From Magallana gigas (taxonomy: Eukaryota): a stretch of DNA of 64,000 bases. A program made the translations under genes and the position numbers. A model generated the notes under the pieces. That model did not search any database and had not been told where the DNA came from. It worked only from the letters and a program-made list of their open reading frames with translations. The stretch covers positions 26,846,001 through 26,910,000 of the forward strand of contig NC_088862.1 in NCBI RefSeq assembly GCF_963853765.1, in the 5' to 3' direction. Positions 19,661 to 32,465 of the stretch are shown in pieces (positions within the stretch are counted from its first letter, which is position 1; every line of letters starts with the position of its first letter).

Positions 19661-20085
19661 AGTGATGTTTATCATCTATTAATGCTTCTTTAATGGCGAC
19701 AACATTGTCTGACAATGTTCACTATGAAATACTTTTTTATCGAGCGCCAACAAAAACTTTCCAAACAGCCATGATATCCTAGCCAACGTTCTCCTTTTAG
19801 TAAAGTAATCCAGATTCTATTATCAAGTGTGCTGCAATTGAACAGAAAATAAATTCAAGCTTTGTAGAAGCATTTTTTTTGGAAAGGGCGTAAATTGTTT
19901 CTGTAAAGAATGACTAAATTTCAGTTTAGCTCGCTTTTTTTGTTTAAGGTATTTATCATCAAATTCGAAGAATTTGCTAGATTATTATTTTTTCTTGTAA
20001 CAAAATAAAAAAATCAAGGATTTATATCAATATGAATTATTGTATACCTAAAACTCGTTGAGGAAGAATCTGAAGTTTTTCATTC

Positions 20086-20821
20086 TGTAAGCCTTCTGTC
20101 TTACAGGATCCTATTGAGGGTCAGCTCAAGCTTATGGATGACAAGTCCAGGATTTCTTTCTCAAGCGGTTTTATTAAGCGTGATCGTATAGTTACAATAA
20201 CATCAGCTAATAGCAGCCCAAATCAGGAGTCTGCACAATCTTATTTCATATGGGTATATATAAGGTTTTACTTATGATGGACAGTTTTGACTAGTTCGGC
20301 CCATATACGACGATCATGAGTGAACATTTAGTGTTCAAAATTAAGATTAATATTTTATTCCTAAATAAAGTAACAAAACCGTCAAAACTGCCAATCAAAG
20401 AGTCTGGATGCAGGATGTGGGTCTCCGAGTCCTGGGTCTCGGAGCCCCCCCACCTAGTATGAGGCATCACTTACTCACAATACGTTCATTCATACACGGC
20501 ATAAAAGGTTACAAAGGTTAATATATAGAATACACAATACATGACTCAATATAGAATACTAGAGCATTCGTTGCAGACACAGAATCGCCAAATAGGTCAC
20601 ATGTTGTTAAACTCTCAATTTGGATATTATTCTGCCCGTATTATGACCTGGTTTCATAACATCATTTAGGAATACTACGCATTGCTACAAGAGTCACAGA
20701 GTTCATTCTGTCAATTATCATTAACACCATTCAGTGCGCAGCATCTAGGTACACATAAATATCATAGTGACCATTATGTAATACTAGCAATTCAAGGTCA
20801 TAGCATGGCTATCTGTTTACA
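20086..20821 (-). repeat. 3' LTR (736 bp)
   Basis: TGTAAAC...GCTTACA on the minus strand; matches 31211-31946 except about 2 substitutions seen by eye. Confidence 0.97.
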
Positions 20822-20832
20822 TACGTCCCCCA
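20822..20832 (-). promoter_or_regulatory. Putative polypurine tract
   Basis: Minus strand TTTGGGGGACGTA directly before the 3' LTR TGT; the purine run is short. Confidence 0.6.
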
Positions 20833-21455
20833 AACAAAAGAAATATCCCGAAGGGAGATTTCTCATGCCTGGCGCCCGGAATAGGAAAGCGTCCTTGATC
20901 TACACTTGATCAGACGAACTTCCTAGTGACATACCAGTCAGAACATCTATGTTAAGAGATAGTAACAAGTGACATGTTTCCACCTCCGGCTTGGAACACC
21001 ATTCATCTATAAAAACAAATCTATACCCAGGATGTATACATGTTCATAAAATCATATAGCTTGATTATATCGCATTACAATCATGAAAACAATAATGAAT
21101 AAAGTATGATAATAATGACCAAGATGAAATAACCATAGTTGAATATAATCGTAATTCATCATCAAAGTAATACTAAGTATGATTAAGCTTGATGTCACAT
21201 ATATATAAAAAGTCACTGCATGCTTATAAGTTCACAAAAATATCTCTTCCTTCCTAGGGGCGAGGTTCGCGTCATAAGTTCGGAGTCCATCGGTTTCTTC
21301 CTGAATTTCTCCAGAGTGAATCAACAAATACAAGATTTACATTAGCACAAGATAACGCACATTTCTACTTTACACATTTCACATTTTTTTAACTTTCGCT
21401 AAATTTCACAATCCTTTCATAAGGAATACACAACTTCTTCGCGGCTGTAGCTCAA

Positions 21456-23700
21456 TTATTCATCCATCATCGGCACCCGTGGATAGAGGGTCGGCGCGGA
21501 TGGCGAGGCGACTTCTCGCGGAGCGTCTCCTGCGTTCCTCTGTTGCGTAGACATCGCGGCCTTCTCTTCCAGGTATTTACGTGCCAGCTCTGGGTCCGGT
21601 CGATAGTATTTGGTCCATGGATAGTCTTCATTTTCCTCCTCACCACGAAATTGTTGTGCTAGTTTAGTCGAAATGGTCCCCGCGTTACTGGCCAATTTGT
21701 GAGTTCCGATTCCTCCGCTTCGTCGGGGTTTCTCTTGGATCCTAGTGACTTTCGGGATTGGTTCAAGTTCAATAATGTCGCTAGAGGTCCTTTTCTCTGG
21801 ATTCTCACAACAAAATACAGTGTCTTTGGAAGAACCTTTCTTATCTCCGTCACTACCCCTTTTTCGACAACCTGTCCAGCAACCACTACAGCATATACCA
21901 TCCCACTTTTTAATAGTTTTACGTTTCTTAATACAAAGTCCTATCGTTATTGTTACTGCCAAAGTTAAACACACATAAAACCAGGGGCTTCCCACCCAAG
22001 ACGAGGATTTCATGGGTTGCAAATTAATTACTGGCAATTCCGCCATTAGTGCATTCATAGGGAAAATTTTAATATCTTTTAATTTGTCAGGAATTTTTAT
22101 TTGGCTAATTTCGGGGTGTCGGGTGTTTAGAGGGTCCCAAAGGGTGCAGGTATCGATCTCATTGATAAATTTTTGGAAAGAATTGGTCATGTTGAACTGA
22201 CTTTCTCTATTATAAAATGGTGGTAATAATAATGAACCGTGAAAACCCGAGCAACCTTGTCCCAAACTCAGAATGTCTATCGGGCTCTTAACCTTTGTAC
22301 TTTGTGTATTTTGTCCACATTTTACATTTATTTCTAATGGCTTTGAAGAAGTGATTAACCACTTTCCTTCACGCAAGTTGACCGCATTTGGATCAAGTAA
22401 CTTATTTTCTACTAATACTGAACAATGTTTTTCTATTTCTGGCAGGTTATTTATAAATATTTTTACTATATATGCATAAATCGCTCGAGCTTACGGGGTA
22501 AAAGGGTTTATTTATAGAACAAAAGTTCCCGTGTTGTCTTTTACATGCGTTGGTTTCTATTTTAGATAAGGTAGTGTATGTTCCCCGAACATCATCTATA
22601 GCGATTGCTTCAGTTTCGATATCATATCTAGCCAACAGATTTGATTGATTCGTTTTTAAATTCGGCACCGGGAGGTTATGGACCTTGAATAACTCAAATC
22701 GTTTGTTTGTATCTAACAGGGGTATAGTCATTGCAATTATGAGATTTTCCTCCCCAATTAATGTCGTACATGGTAAAATCCTATAATAAGACCAAAGGTC
22801 GGTGGTTATATCATAAGGTAATTTAAGATACGAGGGTAACTGATCTGAGATTTCTAACAACAGGCGCCTGAGATCTCCTGGGGGGATAACGGTTGGAGAG
22901 AGATGTCCTAAAGAAAGCATATTGAGACGTAAACGAAGTTGTTGTAAATGATTTCTAGTTACTGAGACGATTTCGGATAAACTACTTAATGTCCTGTCGA
23001 AACGTATGTAAATGTCATTAAATCTTTGCATGTCATGCAATTCTCTGCCCAGTGTTGATTGTTCTGTCATTGATTCCTTAAGACTAGTAATAATTTCATT
23101 TATTGTCCTGCGGTTGTCCATTATATTTTGCTGATTATCTTTAACAAAAGTCATACTTTCGGTTAATACATGTTTTATTTGCTGTTGATTATTGGCAAGC
23201 TGCCTAACATTGCTTCTAATACTGTTTAAATCTTCTTCGTCTAATGTACCGAAAAGAAAAGATAGGACTTTCCCTACAATTGGTATTACAGCTCTAGTAT
23301 TTCTACGGTGCATAAAACGAATTTCTTGTACCTCTTGTTCCAAATATCTTCTGTTTACCTTAAAATTGTTTATCTCAACTGAAAACCTTTCGCTCATTTG
23401 ATAAAGCCGAAAGATGGGTGTCATGCGAATAGTTTGATTAGTATCAGTGACTGATAGTTTCTTTGATTCATCCCCAATGGCTTGAACTAAAGTATTTTTG
23501 ACAGTTACTAATTCCGTTTGTAACAAATTAAGAATGGTATAATAAGGATTTAAGCTTATTGTCGTGATTGCTGTCCATTTTCCTTGCACCAGAGAAATAT
23601 CCTTAACTTTTTCAAAAATTACATTTTTCCTGACGATATTGTTTGCGAAAGGTATCCCAAACATTCCAGCTAGGAGGAATACTGTCAAGACCCACTTCAT
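21456..23700 (-). CDS. env: Envelope class I fusion protein (baculovirus F/errantivirus Env type), ~746 aa if repaired; frameshift at 22467-22473
   Basis: Signal peptide MKWVLTVFLLAGMFG; furin site RRNTR followed by AVIPIVGKVLSFLFGTLDEED, fitting the F-protein fusion-peptide pattern; heptad region; Cys-rich region; TM PWFYVCLTLAVTITIGLCI; 157-aa tail. Frame 1 stops after 417 aa; frame 2 is open from 22469 to 21456. Confidence 0.9.
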
Positions 23701-23707
23701 CCTGCAA

Positions 23708-24343
23708 TTAATAATTGAAACTTCTAATACAAGGGTGTTTGCAGAAAGTTCTTTCAAATTGGTACATCCAGCCAATTACATTCCTTCTCGTTTCTGACAT
23801 TTCTATCATTTTTGAATGAGTTTCTACTAAATCAAGTGGAAAGTGTTTTTTCATAAATTTGATGAAAGAGGGGTATAGCAGCAGCGTTTCATTATTTCCT
23901 ATCACTATGGCTTGTAGGGTTACTATTCTTTGAAATTCTGAATTTATCTTAAGCCTAGTAGGGCGATTTTGTTCCGCGATTCTCTGATAATTCATTATTT
24001 GAGCCTTAACCAATTCGGGTAAATCACGGATCAATTCACAGATTTTACTTAATGGTATATCTTCATCGTCAGATGTCATTGGGACTAATGCCTGAGGAAT
24101 TTCTACCTTAGGATGTGAAACTCTTGGAAGTTTTACAAATTTATTTCTTTCGAAGCCAGGTTGTAAGGAGCCCAAATTATAATGTAATTGTTGTGAGTTA
24201 GTATTTGTTCCCTGCTTCGGCATTTCTAGCTTCATTGACCATTCACGTTTTGGATCGGGTCTAAGTCTTGATTTGTCTGAAAATTTCTTCCCCGATTGTG
24301 AAAATGATGTAAGTGAGCGGGGCGACGGTCGTGGATCGGACAT
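23708..24343 (-). CDS. Accessory ORF D (211 aa): Pro/basic disordered N-terminus, SDDEDIPL motif, paralogous LPxxhxxxIMxYxR domain
   Basis: Intact ORF; acceptor TTCTTTTCAG|ATG; aligns to ORFs B and C without gaps over 33 aa. Confidence 0.8.
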   Translation of the reverse strand: MSDPRPSPRSLTSFSQSGKKFSDKSRLRPDPKREWSMKLEMPKQGTNTNSQQLHYNLGSLQPGFERNKFVKLPRVSHPKVEIPQALVPMTSDDEDIPLSKICELIRDLPELVKAQIMNYQRIAEQNRPTRLKINSEFQRIVTLQAIVIGNNETLLLYPSFIKFMKKHFPLDLVETHSKMIEMSETRRNVIGWMYQFERTFCKHPCIRSFNY

Positions 24344-24377
24344 CTGAAAAGAACGTTCGATATATTAAGACCTTGGA

Positions 24378-24812
24378 TTAACCCAACCTAAAAGGTTTAC
24401 CATTTATGTCAAGAAGTACTAATTCGTTTTCGATTGGATTGAAATCCATTATCACCCCATTTTCACCTACTCTAAACGAGTTTGGGACGACCTCGTTTGC
24501 TAGGATGAATTGTAAATACCTAGTCTCTTCGTGACCAATGGTATCAAAAAGATGATAAATTTCATCGAATTTTTTCTTAATTTTCAATAACCTGTTTATG
24601 TTCGTTATGAAAGTTGGACTAAATTTTCTAAAAAATGCATCAGCATATTCATCCATTCTCTTTAACTCTAACAAAACTGTTCTCTTTGGTTCGATTTCCG
24701 CGTTTGCCAAGCGATGGTATGTCATGATTTTATCCAAGATTAATGGGGGCAAATCTGGATAAATATCTTCTCCAGTGAATAATTCCCTGGGAGTTTTCTG
24801 ACTTTCGGCCAT
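24378..24812 (-). CDS. Accessory ORF C (144 aa), paralogue of B and D
   Basis: Intact ORF; acceptor TTCATTTATTTTACAG|AAATG; IYPDLPPLILDKIMTYHRLANAE. Confidence 0.85.
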   Translation of the reverse strand: MAESQKTPRELFTGEDIYPDLPPLILDKIMTYHRLANAEIEPKRTVLLELKRMDEYADAFFRKFSPTFITNINRLLKIKKKFDEIYHLFDTIGHEETRYLQFILANEVVPNSFRVGENGVIMDFNPIENELVLLDINGKPFRLG

Positions 24813-24872
24813 TTCTGTAAAATAAATGAATTATTACCTTATTTAGTACATAAGTTTAATAAGGCTCCCCAT

Positions 24873-25331
24873 TTAATGTGGTTCATTAAGATCTCTGAAC
24901 TGCATATTCAACCCGGCTGCGTCATTTTGAATACTCCCCATATCAACTAGATCTAGGACCATTGCCGACAGATACTCTAATTCTTCAGGTCCTAAGCGTT
25001 CACAATCCCTTAGAATTCTCATCATCAATTTTAGGTTTCGAATAAAGCTAGGTCTCAGTGTTTCCGGACTTAACCTCCTATTTAGGTACTTAGAATATAC
25101 GTTAAATCGCCTTAACTCTACATTGACATATTTCTTTGGGGTCAATTCCGCGTTTGCTATACGATGATACTTCATAATTTGATCGATAACAGGATAAGGT
25201 AGCTGGTCAGGGTAAATGTTCCCAGGGGTATATAATGAGTTGATCCTCATTGCTCTTTCCTCAAGGTTGTCAATGCTTTCCATTTCCTCTTCCTCTCTCC
25301 CTGATGGATGTTCCGATCTTGCACTTGCCAT
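24873..25331 (-). CDS. Accessory ORF B (152 aa from MASARS), paralogue of C and D
   Basis: Intact ORF; acceptor CATTTCTTGCAG|AAAATG; IYPDQLPYPVIDQIMKYHRIANAE. Confidence 0.85.
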   Translation of the reverse strand: MASARSEHPSGREEEEMESIDNLEERAMRINSLYTPGNIYPDQLPYPVIDQIMKYHRIANAELTPKKYVNVELRRFNVYSKYLNRRLSPETLRPSFIRNLKLMMRILRDCERLGPEELEYLSAMVLDLVDMGSIQNDAAGLNMQFRDLNEPH

Positions 25332-25476
25332 TTTCTGCAAGAAATGCAAGACATCAGGAACATCCACCCATGAACAAGAGAAAAGCTAAATTGCTATATC
25401 CCTATTTTTTTTTTTCTTTAATTATTAATAAGCATGATATATGTACAAAGCAAAGCTCATTCGAGATTATTTACAT

Positions 25477-25695
25477 CTACATTCGGTTTCGAGTGACCCC
25501 CTCCCTCCTAACGCTCGCGGAGGTGATTTCTCCTCTAATGATTAGCATAACCATATCAGAGTATGGCTCTGTATCACTCAAATAATGGCTGTATATGTTC
25601 AAGGTTGCTGTCAATGTGACTCCTCCAAACTTTATTTTGATATAAAGTTCACTAGGGGGCGTCAATCTCAGTTCCAATAACTCAGATTCTGACAT
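25477..25695 (-). CDS. Accessory ORF A (72 aa), unknown function
   Basis: Intact ORF starting 22 nt after the pol stop; acceptor CCTTTATTTTCAG|ATG. Confidence 0.7.
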   Translation of the reverse strand: MSESELLELRLTPPSELYIKIKFGGVTLTATLNIYSHYLSDTEPYSDMVMLIIRGEITSASVRREGVTRNRM

Positions 25696-25717
25696 CTGAA
25701 AATAAAGGATACTTTAT

Positions 25718-28700
25718 CTACCCTATTACTAACTGTTTTAAGACAACTAAACAATCCTCTTTAAATTTTTGTTTATTAGATTTACGGGGTTTAGGGATTG
25801 GTTTGAAGCCTAGACCTACTTTAGGGGCTATTTCATCTATTTCCATATTTTCTTCTAAGGGTACATTTGGGTTATCTAAGGGTATTTCATAGGCTTGACC
25901 ACTATTTTCACCACATTGATTTGACTCATGGGTCTCATCCGATTCTGAATCTACGGTCTGATCATTCTCGTGTTTATACTGCTGATCATCCATGATCGTC
26001 TTAGCTCTTATACGTCTTTGAAGTTCTGCTAGGGGAATATCCTCTTCGTCTGAAGATCCTTCTCTTTCCCATTGTTTGGACTGTATAGCTCTTTCCAATG
26101 GTTCTGGTTGCATGTCTTCATTTTCTGACGACGATTCATCTTCCGGTGGCACCACATAGTTAGTTTTTCTTAGAGTTCTTCCACCATCTTCAGTAGTTTG
26201 TGAAAGGGGCCAGTGCGAAATATCTGCCAATCTTAATTGTCGCGCATGGCATTTGGTGGTTAATCCAGTCAATTGATCTCTCACCACGAAACTAACTGGT
26301 CCTTTCTGCTCTATGATTCGATAATACGGTAGCCACTTTTTATCTAACTTATTTTGTCTTCTGTTGTTCTTAAGGTAGACAGGGTCACCTACCTGAAAAT
26401 TTTCATCTTTGCTTCTCTTATCGGCCTGAGCTTTCTGTTTCTTCTTGGCTTCCTTCATATTACGATGTACTAGCAGGAAAGCTTTATGCTGTTCTTGAAG
26501 GGCAATCTTGTGTTGATCTTCTCCCGCATATCTCCTTCGAGGTTTCATTAACGTATCAAGAGGTAATACGACATCTCTGTTGTACATAAGGTAATATGGG
26601 GAAAACTTTGACGAATCGTTAGGATGGAAACGAATGGCTGCCAACGTCTGATTAAGATGAATATCCCATGTTTGAGCGTTGTCTGTTGTTTTCTTAGCCA
26701 TCACGTCATGTAGAGTTCTATGAAATCGTTCTACTTTACCATTACCTTGAGGGCTGTAATAAGATGTTTTGATATGGTTGATATTCAATTCTTTTAAAGT
26801 TTCTTCCACTTTCTTATTCACATTTTCTGTTCCGTTGTCTGTGAGGATTTGAAGAGGACAGCCATATCTTGGATATATTTCTTCTAAGATAAGATGTACT
26901 ATGTTGTCAGCTGACTTATCAGGGACGGGAAAAGCTTCTGGCCAACCAGAGTAAATGTCTATAAAAGAAACTATGTACTTGTTTCCCGACAAGGATGTTG
27001 GATATGGTCCTGATAGATCAAGTCCTACTTTAGCCATTGGAAAAGGTGGTATATCTGTCTCTTGAAGTGGAGGTTGATTTTTCTTATTGCTCCTCGTTTG
27101 GCATACTACACATCCTTCTATATAAGAGTATAACCTTTTGTACAAATTTGGTATGTAGTACTTTTGTCTGATTACGTCATATGTTTTGTCCACTCCCATA
27201 TGTCCAAGTCCGTCATGATACTGCTGCACTACTAAAAGTTCTAACTCACGTGGTACATACAGGCGAAGTTTTGGGCCTTCTGAGTCTCCATCTGAAAGAT
27301 AGTACATTAAACCATCAATTTCCAGAAACTTCTTTTCTTCGGTTGCCGTTGCTGTTCCTTTATTTAACCGATTCTTCAGTTTCTTGATCTGCTCGTCGTG
27401 TTGTTGACTTTCTTTGATGTTGATATCCTCTGGTAGATCAATAAAGGGTTTGACCAATTCGTCGTTTTGTTTAACTTCACATCTGGCTAATCTCTTAGGC
27501 GAAAAGGCATTGGAGTTAAGTACGTTCACTTCAAAGAAATTGTCCTTAACATCTGGTTCATCATGCTCTGATTGTTCTTCCTCTTCACACTCGAGGTTGA
27601 CTGTCGGTAATCGGGATAAGAGATCTGCACAGCAGTTAAATCTTCCTTCTATGTACTCTACCTTACAGTTATATCCTGCAATACTTAATGCCCATAGTTG
27701 AATTTTCTTATTTTGCATTGGAGAGTCTAAGATATACTTGAGCGGCTTATGGTCTGTTCTTATAGTAAACTGAGCACCGTGTAAATAATGGTCTAACTTC
27801 TGAAGGGCGTAATGGATTGCAAATGCCTCCTTTTCTATGGTTGACCACTTTTCTTGAGTTTTACTCAGCTTGTGGGATAAGTAATATATTGGCTTATCTT
27901 CTCCCTCATCTGTCTTTTGAGTAAGGCACGCTCCAATACATTTGTCGCTGGCATCGGTGTACAGGATGTAAGGCTTATTAGTATCTGGATATGCTAGTAA
28001 AGGCACTACCGTTAAACTTTCTTTAATAAAGTCAAACGCTTTTTGGCAACATGGCGTCCATTTGAACCTTGCATATTTTCTGGTTAAGTCAATCAATGGT
28101 TCCGCAATCTTAGAGAAATTCGGTATAAATCTCCTGTAATAACTACACATACCTATAAAGCCACGAACTTCTCGGACTGTAGTGGGCGCTGGTAACTTTC
28201 TTATAGCTTCGACTTTCTTTGAATCAGGTGTAACGCCATGTTCATCAATGATGAAACCAAGATATTCTGTCTGTTCCTTGAAGAAACTACATTTCTTTAG
28301 CTTCATTTTAAGTCCATGCTTCCTTAGGCGGTTGAAAACGTCTTGAATATGCCGAAGATGATCTTCCGGTGTCTCTGAGAATATAAGAATGTCATCCAGG
28401 TATGCGATGGCAAACTCCTCTTGTCCTTGAAGAACTATGTTCATCAGCTCTTGAAAGACTGCCGGTGCATTACTCAACCCAAATGGCATCCGGTTGAATT
28501 GGAATAGTCCTTTGTGACATGCAAAGGCCGTTTTTTCTTTACTTGAATCTTCTAATTTCACTTGCCAATATCCACTCTTTAAGTCTAGTGCAGTGAAATA
28601 TTTTGCCTTACCTAGTAAACATAGGATATCATCAATCAACGGTAGCGGGAATGATACGGGTTTCACTATCTTATTCAAGCTTCTAAAGTCAACGCACATC

Positions 28701-29779
28701 CGGTCTGATCCGTCCTTTTTCTTCACCACTACTAAGGGAAATGACCAAGGCGATTGTGATCTCTCAATAATCTTTGCGTCCATCATTTCTAGTATGGCCT
28801 TGTCAATTATCTGTCTTTTATTTAAGGGTACACGGTAGGGTCTGTTCTTTATTGGGTGGTGATCTCCAGTTTCTATCTTCATTTTAACAGTATCAGTCAC
28901 TCCAAGGTCACTGTCTTTCTTTGCAAATAAATCATTGTTTTTGCTCACAAGTCTTTTGATTGAGAGTTCAAATCTTTTAGGTACATCAATTTCTTCTTTT
29001 GTGTCTTGAGTAGTCTGTATTTCTGAGATTTCCTTCTGTTTTAATGCGGTAATTCGTCCTACTATGTAGCCTCTTGGAATTTTATAATTTTTGTTAGTTT
29101 GGTTAACGAAGATCATTGGAACTTTCTTATCCTTCCGAACTATACAAACGGCGTCTTTTAAATATAGTCCTGGGTCTTCCATAATGCAGTTATTGTCTAT
29201 GCTGTTCACTTCAACCAAGTCATTTTTTTCCAGAGGAAAATTGTTATTTATTTTTCCATAGAATACAGTCACCGTGTTTGGTCTCATAATAAGTTTCTTA
29301 GGAGTTCTTACAATAGTTGAGATGTGTAAATCTTCTTTAAGTTCCGCGTATACTTTGCCATCAATACGCATGAGTCCAAGATCAAAGTATAAACGAACAT
29401 TGTTTTTCTTGAGCCAATCACGACCGAGAATCATGTTTCGGTTGAGTCCCTTTGTCACATAAAGTCTGTGGTCTAAAGTTAACCCTGAAATCTTAAAGGA
29501 AATATTTACATACCCTATCGCAATTAAAGAATTGCCATTTGCTGCTTGTAAAGAGGGGATGTCATTATTAAACAACTTGGGGCGGGGAAATAGATTATCA
29601 TACATTTTCTTACTAATTAGAGATACGGCTGCGCCTGTATCTACCAAAGCTCTAAATTTATTTTTACCTACTTTTAATAAACAGCTACTGGGGTTGTTAG
29701 TAAAATTAATTTCATATGTAGGTCTTTGTTTAAAGTTCTTTCTTCGGGCTTCAACGAAGGAAGAACGTCTTAGTTTTCC
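25718..29779 (-). CDS. pol: Pol polyprotein (aspartic protease, RT, RNase H, integrase), expressed by -1 frameshift from gag
   Basis: LVDTGA; VDFRSLN; AYLDDILIFS; LYTDAS; integrase HHCC (HDGLGH...CVVC) and D,D(35)E (GLD, TDNG, VERF); FQVGDPVYL; long acidic tail. The frame is open upstream of the listed ORF start as far as the gag end. Confidence 0.97.
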   Translation of the reverse strand, partial: GKLRRSSFVEARRKNFKQRPTYEINFTNNPSSCLLKVGKNKFRALVDTGAAVSLISKKMYDNLFPRPKLFNNDIPSLQAANGNSLIAIGYVNISFKISGLTLDHRLYVTKGLNRNMILGRDWLKKNNVRLYFDLGLMRIDGKVYAELKEDLHISTIVRTPKKLIMRPNTVTVFYGKINNNFPLEKNDLVEVNSIDNNCIMEDPGLYLKDAVCIVRKDKKVPMIFVNQTNKNYKIPRGYIVGRITALKQKEISEIQTTQDTKEEIDVPKRFELSIKRLVSKNNDLFAKKDSDLGVTDTVKMKIETGDHHPIKNRPYRVPLNKRQIIDKAILEMMDAKIIERSQSPWSFPLVVVKKKDGSDRMCVDFRSLNKIVKPVSFPLPLIDDILCLLGKAKYFTALDLKSGYWQVKLEDSSKEKTAFACHKGLFQFNRMPFGLSNAPAVFQELMNIVLQGQEEFAIAYLDDILIFSETPEDHLRHIQDVFNRLRKHGLKMKLKKCSFFKEQTEYLGFIIDEHGVTPDSKKVEAIRKLPAPTTVREVRGFIGMCSYYRRFIPNFSKIAEPLIDLTRKYARFKWTPCCQKAFDFIKESLTVVPLLAYPDTNKPYILYTDASDKCIGACLTQKTDEGEDKPIYYLSHKLSKTQEKWSTIEKEAFAIHYALQKLDHYLHGAQFTIRTDHKPLKYILDSPMQNKKIQLWALSIAGYNCKVEYIEGRFNCCADLLSRLPTVNLECEEEEQSEHDEPDVKDNFFEVNVLNSNAFSPKRLARCEVKQNDELVKPFIDLPEDINIKESQQHDEQIKKLKNRLNKGTATATEEKKFLEIDGLMYYLSDGDSEGPKLRLYVPRELELLVVQQYHDGLGHMGVDKTYDVIRQKYYIPNLYKRLYSYIEGCVVCQTRSNKKNQPPLQETDIPPFPMAKVGLDLSGPYPTSLSGNKYIVSFIDIYSGWPEAFPVPDKSADNIVHLILEEIYPRYGCPLQILTDNGTENVNKKVEETLKELNINHIKTSYYSPQGNGKVERFHRTLHDVMAKKTTDNAQTWDIHLNQTLAAIRFHPNDSSKFSPYYLMYNRDVVLPLDTLMKPRRRYAGEDQHKIALQEQHKAFLLVHRNMKEAKKKQKAQADKRSKDENFQVGDPVYLKNNRRQNKLDKKWLPYYRIIEQKGPVSFVVRDQLTGLTTKCHARQLRLADISHWPLSQTTEDGGRTLRKTNYVVPPEDESSSENEDMQPEPLERAIQSKQWEREGSSDEEDIPLAELQRRIRAKTIMDDQQYKHENDQTVDSESDETHESNQCGENSGQAYEIPLDNPNVPLEENMEIDEIAPKVGLGFKPIPKPRKSNKQKFKEDCLVVLKQLVIG
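29735..29779 (-). promoter_or_regulatory. -1 ribosomal frameshift signal (G GAA AAC, 6-nt spacer, 11-bp stem-loop)
   Basis: G_GAA_AAC_TAA at 29779-29770; stem GTTCTT-C-CTTCG / CGAAG-A-AAGAAC (29766-29735) with an 8-nt loop. Confidence 0.75.
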
Positions 29780-31089
29780 TGTTTTTGTTTGTCAAAATAA
29801 GAGCGCGATTTGAAATTTTGAGACGATCCCCTATTTACTTGGTCGCTAGATTTATATGTTCGGCCTTGACGATTTGATGGTCTGCCCCGATTTTGCTGCG
29901 TTCTTTGATACATATGCGAGCCCCAACAATCTGCACGCACATGACCTACTTTACCACAATTCCAACATTCCACAGGCGAACGGGGTTTCTGCTCTATATT
30001 ATGGACGGGTTTGTTTTGACTTGGTCGTTTATCTATTTGAGGACGGGACCTGACTTGGGATTTATTTTGAGTACAAAATCGAGCCCTATGACCCGTCTGT
30101 TTACATTTAAAACACCTACTATTACGCGCATGGTCAATTTCCATTGGTTCTACATGCCTTGTCTCTACTGAGGTAAGATTATCTGCTCTATCCTTTAATA
30201 AGGGAAGAGTAGTATCAAAATTTGAAAGAGTTCGTCTGTTGTCATTACTTTGTACAATTTCTGTCATATTTGACCCTCTTATCGCTAGCCTCTGTCTCAG
30301 ATTTTGTTCTCGCATTGCTATTTGAATTGCGGATTCTAAATCTTTAGGGTTTTCTCGCAAAATTTTCATTCTGAGGTAGTCGAATGTCAACCCGTCACAA
30401 AAGATATCTACTAACTGTTGTTGTATCAAAGGGTCTTTTAGTCTGTCATTACTGTAGGCGTCTTCCGCGATTTGCAATAGTCTCTCGGCGAACAACTGAA
30501 CACTTTCATTTGAATGTTGTCGAGTCTTACGCATTACTGCTAACGCGTGTTGGGGGTCTGTTATTTCTGCAAATCTATTTTTAAGGGATTCCTTAAGATC
30601 GTTCCAAGATGGGATTTCTTCAGACGCATCTGTTTCATCTAAATACCTTTTAATATAATCCCCAACTGAACCCTTACTCGTTATGTATGCAAGCATGGGG
30701 ATCTCATGACCTTGTTTCCCAGACATAACACTGTACTTTTCAACTTCCTTTATCCACTGTTTAAATTTTTGAGCATCTCCCTCAAAAGGAGTTATCACAG
30801 AAGATAGGGGCACTGAGAGTGCAGCTGTTATAGCTTTAACTTGACCAATAAAAAAATCTTTTTCATCATCCTGATCTGGGACTCGGTGTCGAGTTTCACG
30901 AGTTTCATACGGCCTAGCATCATGATATGTTTCAAAAGTATTTTGTTTAATCTGCTCTTTTTCTGGGGATTTTTGACCTGTTTCTTGCCCTTTATTTTCT
31001 TTGTTCTGACCCAACCCCGCGAATTGTTTTTCTAATTGCTCCATTTGATTTTTAAATTCTTTTTTATCAAACCCATCACCTGTCGCCAT
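29770..31089 (-). CDS. gag: Gag polyprotein (439 aa) with capsid-like core and two CCHC zinc knuckles
   Basis: CFKCKQTGHRARFC and CWNCGKVGHVRADC; AATATGG start context; lies between the PBS and pol. Confidence 0.95.
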   Translation of the reverse strand: MATGDGFDKKEFKNQMEQLEKQFAGLGQNKENKGQETGQKSPEKEQIKQNTFETYHDARPYETRETRHRVPDQDDEKDFFIGQVKAITAALSVPLSSVITPFEGDAQKFKQWIKEVEKYSVMSGKQGHEIPMLAYITSKGSVGDYIKRYLDETDASEEIPSWNDLKESLKNRFAEITDPQHALAVMRKTRQHSNESVQLFAERLLQIAEDAYSNDRLKDPLIQQQLVDIFCDGLTFDYLRMKILRENPKDLESAIQIAMREQNLRQRLAIRGSNMTEIVQSNDNRRTLSNFDTTLPLLKDRADNLTSVETRHVEPMEIDHARNSRCFKCKQTGHRARFCTQNKSQVRSRPQIDKRPSQNKPVHNIEQKPRSPVECWNCGKVGHVRADCWGSHMYQRTQQNRGRPSNRQGRTYKSSDQVNRGSSQNFKSRSYFDKQKQEN

Positions 31090-31150
31090 ATTGGTTGCTT
31101 AGACAAAGTTGTTTACTTCGAGATAGCTATAAGAGACATATAGAAATGGT

Positions 31151-31159
31151 TCTTACCTT
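31151..31159 (-). promoter_or_regulatory. Leader splice donor AAG|GTAAGA (exon ends at 31157)
   Basis: Near-consensus 5' splice site between the PBS and the gag ATG, where retroviral major donors lie. Confidence 0.75.
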
Positions 31160-31182
31160 ACTCTGTATTGAACTTCGCTCAG

Positions 31183-31200
31183 TCCTGGTCACTGGCACCA
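31183..31200 (-). promoter_or_regulatory. Primer-binding site, probably tRNA-His(GUG)
   Basis: TGGTGCC(A)GTGACCAGGA is complementary to a recalled invertebrate tRNA-His 3' end (TCCTGGTCACGGCACCA) with one bulged nt; it starts 10 nt after the 5' LTR. Confidence 0.65.
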
Positions 31201-31210
31201 AGAAAGTTCA

Positions 31211-31946
31211 TGTAAGCCTTCTGTCTTACAGGATCCTATTGAGGGTCAGCTCAAGCTTATGGATGACAAGTCCAGGATTTCTTTCTCAAGCGGTTTTATT
31301 AAGCGTGATCGTATAGTTACAATAACATCAGCTAATAGCAGCCCAAATCAGGAGTCTGCACAATCTCATTTCATATGGGTATATATAAGGTTTTACTTAT
31401 GATGGACAGTTTTGACTAGTTCGGCCCATATACGACGATCATGAGTGAACATTTAGTGTTCAAAATTAAGATTAATATTTTATTCCTAAATAAAGTAACA
31501 AAACCGTCAAAACTGCCAATCAAAGAGTCTGGATGCAGGATGTGGGTCTCCGAGTCCTGGGTCTCGGAGCCCCCCCACCTAGTATGAGGCATCACTTACT
31601 CACAATACGTTCATTCATACACGGCATAAAAGGTTACAAAGGTTAATATATAGAATACACAATACATGACTCAATATAGAATACTAGAGCATTCGTTGCA
31701 GACACAGAATCGCCAAATAGGTCACATGTTGTTAAAATCTCAATTTGGATATTATTCTGCCCGTATTATGACCTGGTTTCATAACATCATTTAGGAATAC
31801 TACGCATTGCTACAAGAGTCACAGAGTTCATTCTGTCAATTATCATTAACACCATTCAGTGCGCAGCATCTAGGTACACATAAATATCATAGTGACCATT
31901 ATGTAATACTAGCAATTCAAGGTCATAGCATGGCTATCTGTTTACA
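31211..31946 (-). repeat. 5' LTR (736 bp)
   Basis: Partner of 20086-20821; candidate TATA-like (31379-31388 or ~31645-31652) and AATAAA (31295-31300, 31479-31484) signals on the minus strand. Confidence 0.97.
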
Positions 31947-32465
31947 ATTCCTTATGCAAAGTTTGGCTTAAAATGTTTATTTTTTAATCTCAACTCCCCA
32001 TTTTATACTTTAAAATAAAAATTAATGATTAAGATTAAGAACCGTTTTTAAAAGAGTTTGGATTTTTGGTGGGATGTAACTATCTTCTTTGTTTATCAAA
32101 TATTGACATCTTTTCTTCGCATTCGCTAGGAGAAGCTAATTTATTTCATAGACTTCAAAATCGGAAAGTTATTTGCCAAGATTTGCTCTGTTGTGTGAAA
32201 TTTGACGCTGTTTTAACGAAATGTACATTTTTGAATGAAGTAAGAGGAGAGTCAATGAGTTCAGTGTACTCTTTTTCGTTAGCCAATTATATGACACCTA
32301 ACCTAGAGTAGGCCACGCTTTCATCCCATCGGATTTTATCACGTACCGCCCAAAATCCAAGCTCTTGTAAAAACATCGGTGTATTTGATTTGTTTCTCAA
32401 GTTCTTTGTAAAACCATGTTTTAAAAGCAGGGCAAATCTTCATAGAACAAAAAAATCCCTTTGTG

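Follow-up and report, generated by a model that had tools for sequence, protein, structure and literature searches.

Multi-gene spliced accessory cassettes are a hallmark of complex vertebrate retroviruses. HIV-1, with its vif/vpr/vpu/rev layout, combines one donor in the leader with several acceptors and small accessory genes placed between pol and env. Here, we analysed a 64,000-nt stretch of the genome of the oyster Magallana gigas (contig NC_088862.1, positions 26,846,001 to 26,910,000), hereafter the window, and found on its minus strand an LTR element that resembles this design in having small pol-env genes, one leader donor and several acceptors, the splice sites being predicted. It differs from complex retroviruses in its Metaviridae-type pol, its F-type env and the tandem paralogy of its accessory genes, which bear no sequence relation to the retroviral ones.

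Errantiviruses share with the oyster element the gag-pol-env order, the F-type env, the LTRs and a primer-binding site (PBS) for tRNA-His. Bivalve errantiviruses with ENV_F and His primers have already been catalogued, and a tRNA-His PBS occurs in 2 of the 15 bivalve entries compared here, from the 36 bivalve rows of the survey table (PMC13524379). In insect elements, env is expressed from a spliced RNA, according to the available part of PMC12992720. What sets the oyster element apart from errantiviruses is the presence of four accessory ORFs (A, B, C and D) in the pol-env gap, every one of them preceded by a predicted acceptor. Why might such a layout have been overlooked? The survey of 'ancient errantiviruses', molluscs included, allowed a pol-env distance of up to 1,000 nt, as described in the sections consulted (PMC13524379), and a gap of 2,017 nt is therefore likely to have been filtered out. 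Extra ORFs under selection, some of them spliced, are also found in Cer1 (CERV; PMC10309623), MDG1 (sORF1 and sORF2; PMC11952523) and bdelloid elements (ORF3 enzymes; PMC5408684). These, however, number one or two and lie upstream of gag or replace env, and a duplicated cassette beside env is not described in the consulted portions of these reports. Our literature search, whose scope excluded most subscription journals, Repbase and Dfam, found no description of the cassette or of a retrotransposon-encoded cullin adaptor.

Anatomy and predicted splicing of the oyster element

The element is a full-length, errantivirus-like Ty3/Gypsy LTR element with an F-type env (20086..31946, minus strand, as are all its features; 11,861 nt), flanked by a 4-nt target-site duplication (20082-20085 and 31947-31950). 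Its 5′ LTR (31211..31946) and 3′ LTR (20086..20821), each of 736 nt and of the form TG...CA, differ at only two positions, which indicates a recent insertion. The PBS (31183..31200) pairs, with a one-base bulge, with the 3′ end of host tRNA-His(GUG), whose genes are present in the host genome and fit it. A 14-nt stretch of U5 (31304..31317; second copy at 20179-20192) is complementary to nucleotides 3-16 of tRNA-His and constitutes a predicted second primer contact. This complement of the tRNA 5′ end lies about 104 nt away from the PBS, an arrangement that would correspond to two-part primer binding, and a 13-nt equivalent is present in the LTR of the diverged subfamily L018. Two-part primer binding is known in Ty3 and likewise in Drosophila Gypsy. 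A tRNA-His 5′-end 15-mer is also carried by a different dispersed repeat (L158-L165), which is not a tRNA gene.

The gag gene (29770..31089; 439 aa) encodes a Ty3 capsid-like domain and zinc knuckles, and pol, counted from its first Met (25718..29605; 1295 aa), encodes RT, RNase H and integrase. Since the open frame of pol reaches upstream across the protease motif, expression by frameshifting is likely. The baculovirus-F-like env (21456..23700; Pfam PF12259, E 4e-13) is frameshifted near 22.45 kb in the window copy, leaving ORFs of 417 and 244 aa, and forms a single 746-aa ORF in three other copies. The TG...CA LTRs, the duplicated target site, the tRNA PBS, gag followed by RT-RNase H-integrase and the F-type env after pol together place the element, as judged from its sequence, among the errantiviruses. 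As to its surroundings, the repeat unit into which the element has inserted is found again at a distance of about 17.5 kb, and the window contains two near-identical intronless genes for rhodopsin-family GPCRs (PF00001; 32466-33401 and 38053-38988), which form a tandem duplication.

A major splice donor is predicted in the leader, between the PBS and the gag ATG (31151..31159; junction 31157/31156), with a weaker alternative 5 nt upstream; donor-like sites are also conserved in the leaders of L018, L202, L203 and L207. The predicted acceptors end directly before the ATG of A and D, and 2, 3 and 1 nt before those of C, B and env, respectively. A YAG preceded by a pyrimidine tract and ending 0-3 nt upstream marks 5/5 post-pol ATGs in the window against 6/227 other sense ATGs. 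With a looser rule, acceptors are conserved at 19 of the 23 post-pol starts of related families (seven elements, one env being scored at its second Met) against 26/312 gag-pol ATGs, and three of the four misses nonetheless have a YAG. In other families that retain env, the pol-env slot holds accessory ORFs of different kinds (L207 5988-6719; L201; L202; L203 5873-6409; L208 5045-5584), each behind a predicted acceptor and none with a Pfam match. These signals predict that the cassette ORFs and env are each expressed from their own singly spliced mRNA.

Transcripts were examined in a roughly 1% sample of two poly(A) runs. Depth was about 3-37 over gag-pol and 0-1 over 22.4-25.3 kb, and no donor-acceptor joints were seen in the sampled reads, the cassette depth there being 0-1. 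Five listed read joints were rejected as introns of the element because they are not GT-AG on its strand. Contigs of two other runs span the cassette unspliced, though they may represent DNA. In run X21, most first mates between 25.7 and 31.6 kb map to the minus strand; if the library is stranded in the usual way, antisense RNA would exceed sense RNA over gag-pol.

Paralogy and purifying selection of the accessory genes

An earlier note on this locus had described three paralogous minus-strand ORFs, and both their positions and their paralogy proved right: B (24873..25331; 152 aa), C (24378..24812; 144 aa) and D (23708..24343; 211 aa), the latter with a basic Pro-rich N-terminal region of 88 aa and an acidic patch before the shared domain. 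That view of the cassette was incomplete, since it missed the donor and acceptors, the mostly env-less state of the family (see below) and a fourth gene, ORF A (25477..25695; 72 aa), which shows no relation to B, C or D when local alignments are compared with shuffles. The gap-free 33-aa block reported for the paralogues is exact, with identities of 18/33 (B/C), 13/33 (B/D) and 11/33 (C/D), or 60/99, 50/99 and 49/99 at the nucleotide level. Likewise, P(S/T)F(I) is common to the three proteins, G-x-EE-x-x-YL to B and C, and the 12-nt word shared at 24696 and 25146 occurs nowhere else on either strand of the window. Local alignment scores were 167 for B-C, 61 for B-D and 51 for C-D, reached by 0, 2 and 4 of 2000 shuffles, respectively. 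In a tree of 24 domain sequences, D is split from B plus C (100/100) and C is nested among B-like sequences (97/95). Alignment statistics and tree thus both support the duplication inside the element that had been proposed, and the topology, rooted at the midpoint only, would place the separation of D first and that of B and C afterwards.

Homology extends through the greater part of the domain and takes in its C-terminal strands, and B and C are 35% identical over their full length. The C-termini are therefore diverged homologues rather than unrelated modules, and the suggestion that divergent C-termini select different host targets found no support in our analysis. An acidic motif ending in I/V-P-L is common to the integrase tail (26030-26053) and residues 90-98 of ORF D; another family (L206) has two copies of it in its pol tail and, as far as its sequence suggests, it might be a host-binding linear motif. 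Its Pro is absent in distant relatives of D.

Are these ORFs genes at all? By our own Nei-Gojobori count between subfamilies, dN/dS is 0.24 for A, 0.11-0.15 for C and 0.12 for D (0.05-0.09 for the D domain), against 0.06 for pol and env; B is saturated at silent sites (pN 0.27, pS 0.78). B, C and D are thus whole-domain paralogues under purifying selection, with the silent sites of B saturated. The contents of subfamilies differ, one carrying A-B-C-D and another C-D only. A reading of the ORFs as open frames with no function, or as fragments newly taken from the host, could draw on the near-zero RNA depth reported above, but dN/dS values of 0.05-0.24 with silent sites near saturation and the conserved acceptors speak against it, and it is highly improbable. 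A recent capture also finds no source in protein databases: a family profile run against 1.84 billion proteins gave 33 matches, none of them a host gene or host domain protein and 32 of them short family members. We discarded the remaining one, P0052 (1,384 aa, E 3e-5), whose match is an artefact of helical repeats. Because the profile was built from all three paralogues, this result is not an independent proof of their homology. Viral contigs (searched with the D alignment and the sister-family ORF described below) and metagenome contigs (two scans) contained no related loci that could show the surroundings of the distant relatives P0035, P0038, P0039, P0041 and P0044. NCBIfam and PHROGs gave only noise for the accessory proteins, PDB sequence searches gave no match below E 0.5, and the ESM Atlas gave no usable match for C or for the D domain.

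The LP helix and its candidate partners

Viral proteins can recruit SCF components with very reduced motifs. Cowpox CP77 binds Skp1 with the first F-box helix only, most contacts coming from helix 1 and the preceding loop (reviewed in PMC4353913, as available in part), and polerovirus P0 uses a minimal LPxx(L/I) motif, according to the portion consulted of PMC6593998. In the oyster family, an F-box-helix-1-like stretch lies at 25164..25211 in B, 24714..24761 in C and 23984..24031 in D, with LP at 25202, 24752 and 24022, respectively. Like the minimal viral F-boxes (poxviral ANK/PRANC and P0), it is an amphipathic helix started by LP. Unlike them, the oyster proteins have no ankyrin or other substrate domain, position LP+12 is polar and Skp1 binding is predicted only; moreover, the Pro that follows the motif falls outside the 10-13 spacing given for P0 in the same portion of that source. 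The poxviral minimal consensus (hydrophobic-Pro-x2-hydrophobic-x3-hydrophobic), which we took together with the BC-box pattern used below from the accessible part of PMC6232478, is present in 21/24 family members, and it is a low-information pattern.

The F-box resemblance claimed for this helix withstood comparison with chance, in part. Aligned by hhalign with host F-boxes, the family scored 19.9 over 16 columns (probability 24-40%), above the maximum of 90 gag/pol/env decoy windows (17.3) and of 100 column shuffles (18.4). The 24 members agree with 27 host F-boxes at LP-3, 0, +1, +4, +5, +8, +9 and +11, the helix-1 pattern having hydrophobic residues at +4, +5, +8 and +9 and an aromatic one at +11. 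In contrast, LP+12 is H or Q in 24/24 members and hydrophobic in 27/27 host F-boxes, and the Glu at LP+3 of 13/27 host F-boxes is absent from the family. The likeness is weak and ends after those 16 columns: the helix-2/3 signature (hydrophobic +17, Cys +24, Trp +27) is missing from the 24 members, the host F-box profile gives individual members -1.4 to 4.3 bits, with a shuffle maximum of 8.3, and Pfam F-box, SOCS and PRANC profiles matched 0/24. Missing Pfam matches, low profile scores and the lack of the helix-2/3 signature together mean that these proteins are not members of the cellular F-box families (PF00646/PF12937).

True F-box genes do occur on transposons in this host. F-box-LRR ORFs (L106 7983-8696; L108 8050-8760; L116 7875-8591; L118; also L112-L115) score 27-32 bits on the same profile; they are multi-copy, intronless and encode about 237 aa. 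Several lie beside DNA-transposon-like genes, Harbinger- and Tc1-like by inspection, one of them in an element with long inverted ends. These ORFs account for the multi-copy genomic F-box matches, which were set aside as relatives of B, C and D because they are not homologues.

A similar helix is found in a sister env-bearing family, in which a different 243-aa protein occupies the same slot behind an acceptor and begins with it; among the accessory ORFs of other families listed above, the F-box-helix-like start belongs to that of L207. The sister-family helix scores 12.0 bits on the host F-box profile and has a profile score of 18.3, which 0/90 decoys reach. The comparison of this ORF with B, C and D gave 14.0 against a shuffle maximum of 13.6, so that homology is not demonstrated.

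Our best explanation is that B, C and D recruit host Skp1, a gene for which is present in the host genome, through the LP helix. We propose it tentatively, on the basis of sequence likeness and with a chance that falls somewhat short of even. One helix is enough for some poxviral F-boxes, and two families show a similar helix in the same slot. On the other side, the match covers 16 columns at the probability given, it was picked post hoc among many possible motifs, single-member scores lie within the shuffle range, LP+12 is polar, the helix-2/3 signature is missing and the three proteins have no separate substrate-binding domain. The broader idea of ubiquitin-ligase hijackers, advanced at the outset, keeps the above-decoy helix 1; it loses its other footholds, with Pfam blank, helices 2 and 3 absent and the BC-box of B unconserved, as follows.

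The proposed BC-box NLEERAMRI of B (25233..25268) is present as a stretch, but it fails the published pattern ([TSP]-L-x3-[CSA]-x3-hydrophobic) and its Leu is kept in 2/7 B-like proteins. Only 4/24 family rows match this pattern, none of them B, C or D of the window. A better BC-box-like candidate, overlooked in the earlier note, is found in relatives of D, in which an L-x3-C helix directly precedes the LP helix (24026..24055 in the window copy), as in the VHL-box/BC-box adaptors VHL and ECTV 010 described in the available part of PMC6232478. With an L-x3-C BC box and, right behind it, an LP helix resembling a Cul2 box, D, or perhaps ancestrally all three proteins, could recruit Elongin B/C and Cul2. 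The pattern fits 14/19 close D relatives, 4/4 distant ones retain the Cys and 3/4 the Leu, and some viral BC boxes are reported to function although they lack a canonical Cul2 box (PMC6232478, same part). Nevertheless, we consider this route improbable: D of the window and 4/4 distant relatives fail the pattern, the spacer between BC-box and LP is one residue against about 10-20 in host SOCS boxes (SOCS boxes being the set compared), C has no such box, that of B is unconserved, and the SOCS-box profile (PF07525) gave at most 0.8 bits, with an hhalign probability of 0.9%.

Structure prediction gave little to choose from. AlphaFold2 models of C and B are of low confidence (pTM 0.26 and 0.32), and in both the helix continues for about 40 residues rather than turning into a three-helix box. 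Foldseek found no match at E≤0.001 for the C model in PDB or the B model in BFVD, a wide VIA structure search with the B model returned long-helix matches only (Z<5), and the absence of F-box or VHL chains among the structure matches listed for these low-confidence models excludes nothing. When C (residues 10-125) was modelled in complex with a Skp1 relative of 162 aa that shares 90% identity with the host exon, the prediction had a score of 0.01 and a mark of 0.34; as alignments were not used and the partner fold was uncertain, it is evidence neither way.

A long helix invites a different reading, in which the LP helix is merely the start of a long helical domain. B, C and D might be RNA-binding regulators comparable to Rev or CERV, or RNA-silencing suppressors, which oligomerise through this helix and export or protect unspliced genomic RNA. 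Conservation is strongest at a set of residues (Y, R, A, E, R, P, F) that reaches beyond the LP helix, and the basic ones among them are not accounted for by an F-box; conserved basic positions are LP+10, +13, +22, +23 and +31. These, the basic N-terminal arm of D and the long helix of the models are compatible with RNA binding. In addition, one donor with five acceptors demands an export route for unspliced RNA, and CERV, made from a spliced mRNA, exports for Cer1, according to the part consulted of PMC10309623. Against this, searches of family members revealed neither a Rev-type Arg-rich motif nor a known RNA-binding family, three paralogues exceed the needs of export, and the above-decoy F-box-helix likeness in two families is left unexplained. 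We regard an RNA-binding role as possible, if rather doubtful.

Loss of the cassette together with env

An integrase probe detected 112 candidates, of which the 40 scored are 96-100% identical. By contrast, the genome has only 5 close copies of C, and likewise of the env ectodomain: the family is mostly env-less. We sampled 19 LTR pairs from contigs 1-3, chosen by spacing and hence non-random; one was an LTR-only match and one gave no match. The remaining copies lacked C, D and the env ectodomain without exception (17/17), with a decayed remnant of B in 15/17 and A retained in 2/17. Three of the 17 have identical LTRs and open gag and pol, and such recent env-less insertions indicate that B-D are dispensable for intracellular copying. 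The env-less copies keep the donor, and most of their acceptors are gone.

Within the env-less majority (L138-L156), gag-pol is 95-99% identical to that of the env-bearing form, the 3′ region is heavily decayed and alternative pol tails are seen, which suggests recombination between env-bearing and env-less forms. This lineage also retains the env C-terminal region as DNA.

The joint loss of cassette and env fits a role of the accessory proteins at the env stage. It may also be hitchhiking on shared deletions, which weakens its value for Skp1 recruitment, and it is explained equally well by a Rev-like exporter, since copies that have lost most acceptors would no longer need one. Alternatively, the three proteins could help Env or particle egress, as chaperones or in trafficking or release, in a manner comparable to Vpu or Nef and with no ligase recruitment. 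Their genes immediately precede env, have the same predicted splicing scheme and disappear together with it, and the small accessory ORFs of Drosophila MDG1 serve cell-to-cell transfer (PMC11952523, portion consulted). Helpers of this kind are unlikely, though, as inspection of B, C and D revealed no signal peptide or membrane span, and in related families with env the accessory ORF is a single, different one or is missing altogether.

A model of how Skp1 recruitment might operate can be outlined. Each accessory protein would be made from a separate mRNA, spliced once. The shared LP helix, a candidate minimal one-helix F-box, would bind host Skp1, and the Skp1-bound proteins would steer the SCF ubiquitin ligase towards host defence factors. 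This action would fall in the env-dependent, cell-to-cell stage. The anatomy of the locus, with its paralogues under selection, its conserved splice signals and the loss of cassette and env together, stands on much firmer ground than any mechanism. On the widest interpretation, an invertebrate Ty3/Gypsy lineage would have evolved the complex-retrovirus design independently, with one donor, five spliced messages and duplicated SCF-hijacking one-helix F-box proteins that clear away restriction or small-RNA factors while env drives infection. The lineage would have dropped these proteins upon turning into an intracellular superspreader. As a whole, this scenario is speculative, with the balance of chances tilted against it.

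What would the cassette mean for the biology of these elements? A selected four-gene cassette with three paralogues in a mollusc Ty3/Gypsy element would represent a convergent origin of the complex-retrovirus design. Because forms with and without env, 95-99% identical in gag-pol, share one genome, they provide a natural comparison for what is needed by an infectious lifestyle alone. Finally, if the helix binds Skp1, the protein partners of B, C and D would identify anti-retroelement factors of bivalves, which are poorly known.
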